A stretch of 64,000 nucleotides of DNA, taken from the NCBI GenBank assembly GCA_029883265.1, contig JAOUJM010000001.1:10511-74510 (forward strand), given 5' to 3'. Below the pieces are notes generated by a model. The model was not told where the DNA came from and ran no database searches. It saw only the letters and a program-made list of their open reading frames with translations. Shown in pieces: positions 21,847 through 22,839 of the stretch (within the stretch, counting starts at the first letter, position 1; every line of letters starts with the position of its first letter). Made by a program: the position numbers and the translations under genes. This stretch comes from Gammaproteobacteria bacterium. GTDB taxonomy: Bacteria; Pseudomonadota; Gammaproteobacteria; S012-40.

Positions 21847-22839
21847 TTATTTAAACGCGTTGATAAAATATTGCATATCGTGCAAATCCACAGGGTCCAA
21901 ATAACTTTGCCATGGCAAGGGCTGTTTCGCTTCATTTACGGCCGGTACGGCAATACGAGTGCCTGCGGCTTCTGGCATTTGTCCGGGGCCAAAACGATGC
22001 CAGCCAATGTCCCTACCATAAGATACATCATTAAGTGCCATAACAGCCGCGAGTAAATTTTTTGGGACTGTACCCCATTGGTTGAGGACGGAGTCCACCA
22101 CTGGACTAGCCTGGAGTGTGCTCAATATTTCACCCGGCGTATAGAATGCGTAAACATTTTTCTTTAAGTGATTCCGATCCATTCCATAGCGCTCAATTGT
22201 ACCATCACTGAGTCCTGCCGCGTTAAAGGTAACCGCACTGGATTTCAACCTGCCAGCTTGTGCCGAAGCAATGCCGCCACCGAGGGAGTGACCGGTAAAG
22301 GTTAGTGGTGATGAGCCTAACGCTATTTGAAGATCAATTGCAAGATTGATCCCAAATTCATATTGGGTCGAATTGAAATCGGATCCTTGAGCAATACTTG
22401 CTACTGCATCTTTAACCGCTTCATGCCGGCCCAATTTCGTATCCGTTCCTCGATTGGCGAATATAAATTCGCTTGTGCGATAATTAAAATAGAGTGCGCC
22501 TTGGTAGCCACTCTTCTTATCTACAAAATTTTCAGGTTTCATATCCAGGACATCAATAAAATCCCTACCCATGCGGTAAATATCCTCAGTGACTTTCTTT
22601 GGTTCCTTTCCGGTGTATTCTTGATAAACATCGTCAGATACCATAGCGTTTTCATACCAATCAAGGCTTCCACTAAAGTCCAGTCTGATTGGAGCGGCAC
22701 TAGCAAGCTGCGAGTTATATAGCGTTCCGTTTTCATCAACTAGCTGTCCGTTCTTGAATGTGAGTATCGGTTTGGTTTCAACGGCATCGGATGATTGTCT
22801 ATAAGGAATTTTGCCTGGGGCAGAGTTTTGGACGCTTAC
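21847..22839 (-). other. Transposon-encoded C-terminal toxin domain of the giant ORF (aa 6055-6384): alpha/beta-hydrolase lipase/phospholipase-type (GxSxG)
   Basis: VSVQNSAPGKIPYRQ...YQGALYFNYRTSEFIFANRGTD...LTFTGHSLGGGIASAQAG.... Nucleophile elbow GHSLGG preceded by an (A/F)xxRGT strand, as in class-3 lipase-like effectors. Confidence 0.7.

Follow-up and report, generated by a model that had tools for sequence, protein, structure and literature searches.

A transposon of the IS66 family has carried a new toxin tip into a giant Rhs toxin gene within a window of 64,000 nucleotides (nt) from contig JAOUJM010000001.1, which belongs to a metagenome-assembled genome (MAG) of a Gammaproteobacteria bacterium (S012-40). 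By "the window" we mean this whole stretch, and the analysis was made from sequence data alone. Element B, as this insertion sequence (IS) is called here, brought a start-less toxin tip and a presumed immunity gene as passengers and inserted in frame into the Rhs gene. We put the probability at roughly 0.6 on the account in which the Rhs scaffold supplies promoter, start codon and delivery domains for the new tip and selection retains such in-frame insertions. A homologous IS66 copy, element A, lies in the same locus. For polymorphic toxin genes (Rhs, CdiA and their relatives), the accepted route to a new tip is homologous recombination with orphan cassettes that are silent.

Insertion of element B in a giant Rhs gene

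Element B occupies positions 18733-22839 (4107 bp) and is arranged in the order left inverted repeat (IRL; 18733..18755, plus strand, GTAAGCGTCCTAAACTCCGCACC), tnpA, tnpB, tnpC, passengers, right inverted repeat (IRR; 22817..22839, minus strand). Its tnpC (19554..21044, plus strand) encodes a DDE transposase (PF03050, E 5e-85) with zf-IS66, LZ and C-terminal domains (PF13005, PF13007, PF13817). The tnpB gene (19140..19523, plus strand) is IS66 Orf2-like (PF05717, E 2.8e-33), and a tnpA-like small open reading frame (ORF) of 118 amino acids (aa; 18817..19173, plus strand) has the position and size seen in IS66, with no Pfam match. IRL and IRR both open with GTAAGCGTCC. The target-site duplication (TSD) is a perfect 8-bp match, CTGGCCAT, with copies at 18725..18732 on the left and 22840..22847 on the right; the chance of such a match is 1.5e-5. 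Element B thus shows all the hallmarks of the IS66 family, namely TnpC, TnpB together with the small tnpA ORF, inverted repeats (IRs) starting GTAAGCG, and an 8-bp TSD.

When the IS and one copy of the TSD are deleted, 22840..41001 joined to 17834..18724 on the minus strand gives one ORF of 6350 aa with a TNT end. Given the perfect 8-bp TSD and the single ORF after excision, element B is a genuine insertion in which the 4.1-kb unit moved as a whole, and not an assembly join. The displaced original 3′ end of the Rhs gene (17834..18724, minus strand) reads EVDLPLTLAGHS...RVPNK... and contains the TNT domain (PF14021, E 2e-20); the presumed immunity gene of this tip (17560..17853, minus strand), which has a weak Imm59 match (E 6e-4), overlaps the toxin's stop codon. 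The insertion has therefore separated the original tip, of the NAD-glycohydrolase type, from a 19-kb Rhs/YD-repeat/LysM toxin gene. It sits within the last 5% of the 6350-codon gene, such that the tip alone was exchanged.

It is hardly credible that the IS copies were mis-joined in a metagenome contig and that the fusion exists in no single genome. Such an artefact would be in keeping with the origin of the window from a MAG, with a 200-nt tract that is 99-100% identical between A and B, with the break of another assembly in the tnpC of A, and with the lack of a TSD around A. However, a mis-join does not produce a perfect 8-bp TSD and an ORF that is restored on excision, and both junctions of A are reproduced in independent assemblies (the left one in MAG contig L001, 100% identical over 8283 nt; the right one in L027).

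The host part of the giant ORF (22840..41001, minus strand) comprises residues 1-6054. It has DUF6531 at its N-terminus, RHS repeats (PF05593, E 2.7e-68 and 1.8e-48) and two LysM domains; after the last RHS repeat, these domains and ~900 further unassigned residues precede the tip (protein residues ~4870-6054). A regular-expression search for the canonical core-end motif PxxxxDPxGL near the C-terminus of this protein found none; the local junction motif is [VF]VP[ND]K instead.

The first base of element B is codon position 1 of a 6384-aa ORF at 21847..41001 (...NGYGQ|VSVQNSAPGK), and the fusion ORF across the junction reads ...TYNGYGQ|VSVQNSAPGKIPYR. With the junction placed between two codons and the passenger phased to the first base of the IR, the Rhs ORF continues via the IR (VSVQNSAP) into the new toxin. 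This passenger tip (21847..22839, minus strand; 330 aa) lies flush against IRR, its ORF starting at IS base 1 with GTA AGC GTC CAA AAC TCT GCC CCA GGC AAA (VSVQNSAPGK). It contains GHSLGG and belongs to the lipase-like family PF26363, which is also found at the C-termini of Rhs proteins (P0144/P0145), after a canonical core end of the form ...DPLGE. Similarity to its best relative, P0121, begins at residue 14. The first in-frame start codon is M66; none occurs earlier, and no Shine-Dalgarno sequence precedes M66. An ORF for an ankyrin-repeat protein (21095..21823, minus strand; Ank families), presumably the immunity protein for the lipase-like toxin, starts 23 nt downstream of the toxin's stop codon. 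Both passengers stand between tnpC and IRR, as do two ORFs in element A; genes other than those for transposition in this position are what defines the tIS66 elements discussed below.

The first step is evident from the sequence: an IS66 element with a start-less tip and a presumed immunity gene as passengers transposed in frame into the 3′ end of a Rhs gene. In the course of events that we propose from there on, the host scaffold would supply the promoter, the start codon and the delivery domains, the transposon would supply the toxin tip and the immunity gene, and the octapeptide encoded by the IR would be a passive linker. Selection would act on how the passenger is phased with the IR and on the retention of in-frame insertions in toxin genes; insertions in phase would be retained because the cell gains a new toxin together with its immunity. 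The old tip would become one more orphan cassette.

Element A, other insertion sites and the phase of the junctions

Element A (6847-10500, 3654 bp) is likewise an IS66-family element, with an IRL at 6847..6869 (plus strand), an IRR at 10478..10500 (minus strand) that is the same 23-mer as the IRR of B, and transposition genes homologous to those of B (6931..9185, plus strand: tnpA 6931-7290, tnpB 7278-7634 and tnpC 7647-9185; the tnpA-like ORF has 119 aa). Over the stretch that begins with IRL and reaches nearly to the stop of tnpC, most 100-nt windows show 75-94% identity of A and B; there identity decays, and the sequences beyond are unrelated up to the 23-bp IRR, which is again identical. 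A 200-nt tract of tnpC (8047-8246 in A and 19933-20132 in B; relative positions 1200-1400) is 99-100% identical, which indicates recent gene conversion between the two copies. The same tract is also a possible assembly cross-over point.

The passenger toxin ORF of A (9745..10500, minus strand) begins VSVQNSAPRK... and is open from the first base of the IS over 251 codons; its homologues are proteins of ~160 aa without family assignment. Directly after it follows an ORF of 184 aa (9194..9748, minus strand), the presumed immunity gene of this cargo, with no significant Pfam match. A third element, on contigs L002/L006, has a TnpC that is 66% identical and an IRR that matches at 22/23 positions; it carries a further toxin-like ORF, downstream of which lies an ORF with a weak SUKH-1 match. 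A Pfam search with the A cargo and the L006 toxin gave no family. All three cargos (A, B and L002/L006) are in frame 1 of the IR. Furthermore, contig L010 holds the IRR with 76 nt of the lipase cargo, 99/99 nt identical to B, beside a type I-F CRISPR array. Because a B-type junction of cargo and IRR is found there at a second genomic site, we conclude that the cargo travels with IRR.

The proline and lysine that follow the IR in both elements (APGK/APRK) were considered as a relic of a VPNK junction. This was rejected, since the proline derives from IR positions 22-23 and is absent in the L002/L006 cargo.

To the right of A lies a truncated orphan-cassette junction motif, GTA GTT CCA (VVP; 10501..10509, minus strand), which is in phase with IRR (VVP|VS, GTA GTT CCA|GTA AGC). 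To the left lies a displaced toxin 3′ fragment (6041..6846, minus strand) with FVPDNK at 6463, and the phase of this left junction is the same as that of the left junction of B. Hence, each of the three host junctions (B right, A right and A left) lies within a toxin ORF or cassette and agrees with it in orientation and phase. The probability of such agreement by chance is 1/6 per junction, and jointly ~0.005-0.03.

These figures bear on a simpler account, which we regard as rather unlikely, in which a passenger-bearing IS66 accidentally knocked out the 3′ end of a huge dispensable gene in a rearrangement hot spot, the reading frame being a 1-in-6 coincidence and the toxin either silent or made from an internal start (M66 in B, M18 in A). 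ISs do accumulate in Rhs/orphan regions, and distant IS66 relatives (L018-L020) are found beside Rhs loci; insertions of the element are also seen in non-coding DNA, M66 lies close to where the conserved lipase core starts, a stop follows the IR in the L002/L006 cargo, and B did not insert at the natural VPNK junction. Nevertheless, coincidence would have to account for three cargos in IR frame 1 as well as for three co-oriented, in-phase junctions. In addition, no Shine-Dalgarno sequence is found before M66 or M18, the homology of the B cargo reaches upstream of M66 to residue 14, and the insertion hit the last 5% of the gene, replacing the tip alone.

Several observations do weigh against an in-frame tip exchange by transposition. 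The sample of junctions is very small, as one MAG population and a few related contigs are the only known sources of the lineage. The natural tip junction (RVPNK at 18247) lies 159 codons downstream of the site at which B inserted, and the lost 159-residue pre-toxin segment may be required for delivery; the fusion may be non-functional. The L002/L006 cargo is in IR frame 1 and yet interrupted by a TAA 34 codons in. Insertion is not restricted to toxin genes, as a B-type end and the L002/L006 element are also found in non-coding DNA by the CRISPR array. As for A, three codons of an unexpressed orphan cassette are all that its IRR is fused to, its flanks show no TSD (CAGTGATA versus TGGAACTA), and the linkage of its two flanks rests on one assembly, the L001 assembly breaking inside tnpC. 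A deletion mediated by the IS, recombination between copies or a cross-over of the assembly within the identical tract of tnpC could each explain the lack of a TSD.

The lineage is rare, the exact IR being present only in one MAG population and in a few contigs from the same or related samples. A TnpC homology search of genome contigs gave no match; the IR pattern matched genome contigs twice (Actinomycetota and Chloroflexota MAGs), without IS66 context and at a count expected by chance, and a scan of viral contigs gave 0 matches. No common target motif was found across the five junction flanks (CTGGCCAT, CAGTGATA, TGGAACTA, GAGCTGCG and GCGCTATC). The motif VD(L/F)xLTLAG(H/S)S lies exactly at the insertion site of B and recurs in the fragment to the left of A, ~10 residues ahead of FVPDNK. 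This 11-residue motif is all that the two have in common, and the left flank of A was accordingly rejected as a paralogue of the 3′ end of the giant gene.

At the CRISPR locus, the same IS66 IRR stands 22 nt from the terminal type I-F repeat in three contigs (L002 5494-5516, L006 11658-11680 and L010 77-99). The array has a 28-nt repeat, TTTCTAAACCGCGTACTCAGCGGATAAC, and lies beside csy/cas genes. This one junction is occupied by two different cargos, and the contigs differ in the spacers next to it, which points to in situ replacement of cargo or IS, or to repeated use of one target site. In L006 (5395-6160), the left end of the element has a degenerate IRL, GTATACGTCCGGACAACTGCATC (13/23), and abuts a truncated N6-methyltransferase gene without a TSD. 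The element there carries extra plus-strand passengers, including a Peptidase_S26 ORF, and its surroundings form a defence island (helicase, restriction-modification fragment, CRISPR-Cas).

Coding capacity of the terminal repeats

An earlier, sequence-only reading of the window had drawn attention to the terminal repeats as coding sequence. Read inward, IRR is GTAAGCGTCCAAAACTCTGCCCC, and matches to the IR pattern in the window are the four IS ends only, with 0 expected in shuffles. As had been claimed, the right IRs of A and B are identical (23/23) and free of stops when read inward, encoding VSVQNSAP(G/R)K. Frame 1 is open for 330 codons in B and 251 in A; frame 2 closes at 0 codons and frame 3 after 7-12 (A, B). 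The IRL copies (18733-18755 and 6847-6869) have 3 mismatches to IRR (20/23) and the opposite orientation. The accompanying claim that IRR joins a host ORF to the cargo holds for B, with its 6384-aa ORF, and fails for A: there the gene upstream ends 5 nt short of the IS, and the IR frame has a stop 6 codons upstream of it (*LFVVP|VSVQ).

The same reading had proposed that IRR is under dual constraint, for transposase binding and for a tolerated linker peptide, and had named beforehand the observation that would speak against this, namely the same open frames in cargo-free IS66 relatives. That is what we found. Cargo-free ISAba24 (L023 2070-4490; perfect 8-bp TSD TTATCAAG) has VSVTPTTP in frame 1 of its IRR, and a cargo-free IS66 element of Vibrio gigantis (L026 1993-4604; perfect 8-bp TSD CATCTAAG) has VSVYEPTH. 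The IR of cargo-free ISPsko1 is GTAAGCGTCCGGCGAACTCACCTT (PMC12888890), and its translation in the present analysis gives VSVRRTHL. The left IRs of both elements have no role as linkers, and their frame 1 translates to VSVPNSAP and VSVLNSAP; in every case frame 2 contains TAA. Since the same frame is open in cargo-free relatives and in left IRs, we infer no special adaptation of the IR to coding. Its peptide appears to be a by-product of the conserved IS66 terminus, GTAAGCGT, which leaves frame 1 open and closes frame 2 (TAA).

Several further matches and relatives were left out of this comparison. The metagenome IR matches L007-L009, L012, L013 and L016 were rejected as IS ends, since both flanks are mutually homologous, which places the 20-mer inside a conserved gene; L014/L015 behaved in the same way, being homologous on both sides of the match. 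None of these (L007-L009, L012-L016) was counted as a cargo-free relative. In four more distant TnpC relatives (L017-L020; 45-49% identity), the IRs either lack GTAAGC as their start or could not be defined, and these relatives could not be put in register. In L018/L019 (2495-8480) and L020 (2303-7171), these distant IS66 relatives (TnpC 45-47% identical) stand directly beside Rhs/YD-shell genes, which suggests that this branch of IS66 is more widely associated with loci for polymorphic toxins.

The left ends had also been described as free of stops when read outward. Their translations, ...LKLTGKVRSLGRLHGQEVDL and ...LKRTGKVRSLGRLLSLDG, are as reported, and the two ORFs that start inside the IS are present (17834..18817, 327 aa, TTG; 6041..6868, 275 aa, GTG). 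The host frame is open for 31 codons inside IRL in both elements (p about 0.2), the other frames for 3-15 codons. Since the left ends of A and B are homologous, this openness counts as one observation. The TTG and GTG "starts" are mechanical calls of the ORF caller, with no Shine-Dalgarno sequence, and the phase of the left end, with the last base of the IS at codon position 1, follows from the in-frame right junction and the 8-bp duplication. The proposal that read-through from the left end keeps the displaced toxin/immunity pair transcribed found no support: no outward sigma-70-like site is found at either IRL, the open stretch is at chance level and its phase is geometric. Counts of promoter-like and terminator-like sites equal the shuffled expectation, although such consensus scans are uninformative. 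Read-through from the Rhs promoter, antisense across tnpCBA, is possible. The left-end "ORFs" are, we infer, a by-product of geometry and chance.

Taken together, these results leave it quite improbable that IRR is under dual selection for transposase binding and a linker peptide and that IRL is kept open outward for expression of the displaced pair. Three features had made this attractive: the 23/23 identity of IRR in elements that are elsewhere 75-90% identical, the synonymous nature in frame 1 of two of the three differences between IRL and IRR, and the 31 open codons of the host frame inside both IRLs. However, the shared open frame and VSV start of cargo-free relatives and IRLs need no such selection, and neither do stretches of 8 and 31 stop-free codons, the former having a p of about 0.68. 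Transposase binding together with the gene conversion evident in tnpC accounts for the identity of IRR between A and B.

If the coding capacity of the IR is generic to IS66 ends, any passenger-bearing IS66 could in principle bring about the kind of fusion proposed for element B. A more far-reaching version of that proposal, which we consider possible though doubtful, is a transposon that arms itself. The stop-free frame 1 of IRR would be a universal in-frame adaptor by which tip and immunity gene plug by transposition into any expressed polymorphic-toxin scaffold, be it an Rhs main gene or an orphan-cassette junction; kin without the element and its immunity gene would be killed, giving a population-level drive. 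If this were true, DDE transposition would be a new route for the diversification of polymorphic toxins beside homologous recombination. If the fusion is active, transposons could move tips between unrelated scaffolds or genomes without shared junction sequence, and profit from the killing.

Orphan cassettes, neighbouring genes and known systems

On the minus strand, 627-18247 holds ~14 start-less orphan cassettes of toxin tip and immunity gene, spaced 480-1130 nt apart. A 14-nt motif, GT[AT]GTTCCA[AG]ACAA ([VF]VP[ND]K), has 17 minus-strand copies between 627 and 18247 and 1 plus-strand copy, nearly always directly after a stop codon. At 17/17 copies the frame of the motif is the long open frame, which runs for 130-209 codons, or for 68 at one truncated copy. 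The copy at 18247, within the displaced TNT ORF, is the natural junction of scaffold and tip. The TNT tip and its Imm59-like ORF, followed by downstream orphan cassettes, form the arrangement of a variable-tip locus. The cassette junction is much shorter than the homology arms usually invoked for exchange in Rhs/CdiA, which raises the question of how tips are swapped. A 152-nt direct repeat, 97% identical (957-1108 and 1548-1699), covers the starts of two neighbouring cassettes (VVP(N/D)KTLNHQASSGVILQTE...) and looks like a recent cassette duplication, with one copy truncated to 68 codons.

Upstream of the giant ORF, ~960 nt from its start, lies a degenerate IR-like 23-mer, GGTGGGGAGTTTTGCACGGTTAC (41963-41985; 18/23 to IRR). 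With ~0.02 matches of this quality expected in the window, it may represent a solo IS66 end. A DUF6973 protein is encoded at 44815-46089, upstream of the Rhs gene, and another (contig L003, 2234-3469) stands beside the 3′ end of a related IS66 tnpC (61% identity), in the metagenome common to L006, L010 and L011. Further upstream of the toxin locus, 47000-64000 holds a flagellar cluster (FlgE/F/G-type rod or hook, FliI-type ATPase, FliF, FlgI and FlgA). No genes for a type VI secretion system, PAAR or VgrG were noticed among the window ORFs scanned.

In the literature searched for IS-borne start-less toxin tips, in-frame toxin swaps mediated by IRs and IS66 with Rhs, no description was found. 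The nearest relatives in structure are the tIS66 elements, of which ISPa75-fosZ, ISPsp18, ISPa120, ISPa128 and ISPsy43 are known (PMC12888890). In ISPa75, fosZ lies downstream of the transposase, with a putative promoter between IRR and fosZ; its IRL and IRR come from different IS66 lineages, suggesting capture between two IS66 ends (PMC12888890). Like element B, tIS66 elements have the order IRL-tnpA-tnpB-tnpC-passenger-IRR, with the passenger between the DDE transposase and IRR, and TSDs flank their inserted copies; IRs of the ISPsko1 type start with GTAAGCGTCC, those of others in the group with GTAACCGTCC. The passengers known from them, however, are whole genes (e.g. for fosfomycin resistance), each with a promoter and a start codon of its own, whereas element B carries a start-less C-terminal toxin module and an immunity gene, flush and in phase with IRR and dependent on a host ORF.

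The cargo-free ISAba24 and the Vibrio gigantis element resemble B in having tnpA/B/C, IRs of ~23 bp or more (20-22/24 matching) that begin GTAAGCGT, an 8-bp TSD, and an IR with frame 1 open (VSV...) and frame 2 closed by TAA. Unlike B, they measure 2.4-2.6 kb, with 41-101 bp from the tnpC stop to the IS end, and frame 1 closes 8-15 codons in from IRR (8-22 when the IRLs are included). The TnpC of ISAba24 is only ~36% identical to that of B.

Transposons of the Tn3 family carry toxin-antitoxin passengers, which are intracellular type II addiction modules with their own expression signals. As in element B, toxin and antidote are moved as cargo, but those toxins are not tips of secreted toxins, which have to be fused to a delivery protein.

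Tip displacement in polymorphic toxin systems by orphan toxin/immunity cassettes is reportedly treated by Poole et al. in 2011 and Koskiniemi et al. in 2014. Such displacement of C-terminal tips is described for Rhs, CdiA and MafB (Zhang et al. 2012, PMC3482391). As in those systems, a conserved scaffold here gains a new C-terminal toxin with its cognate immunity gene, and the former tip, together with its immunity gene, ends up downstream in an array of start-less cassettes (here ~14, each with a VVPNK-type motif). Known displacement, however, occurs by homologous recombination at a shared junction, unlike the DDE transposition with a TSD seen here, and the new tip of element B is bounded by IS66 IRs, is placed 159 codons upstream of the natural junction and comes with its own transposase genes. 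The locus thus combines two known kinds, the tIS66 element and the displacement of polymorphic-toxin tips, what appears to be new being a toxin-tip passenger that is fused in frame.

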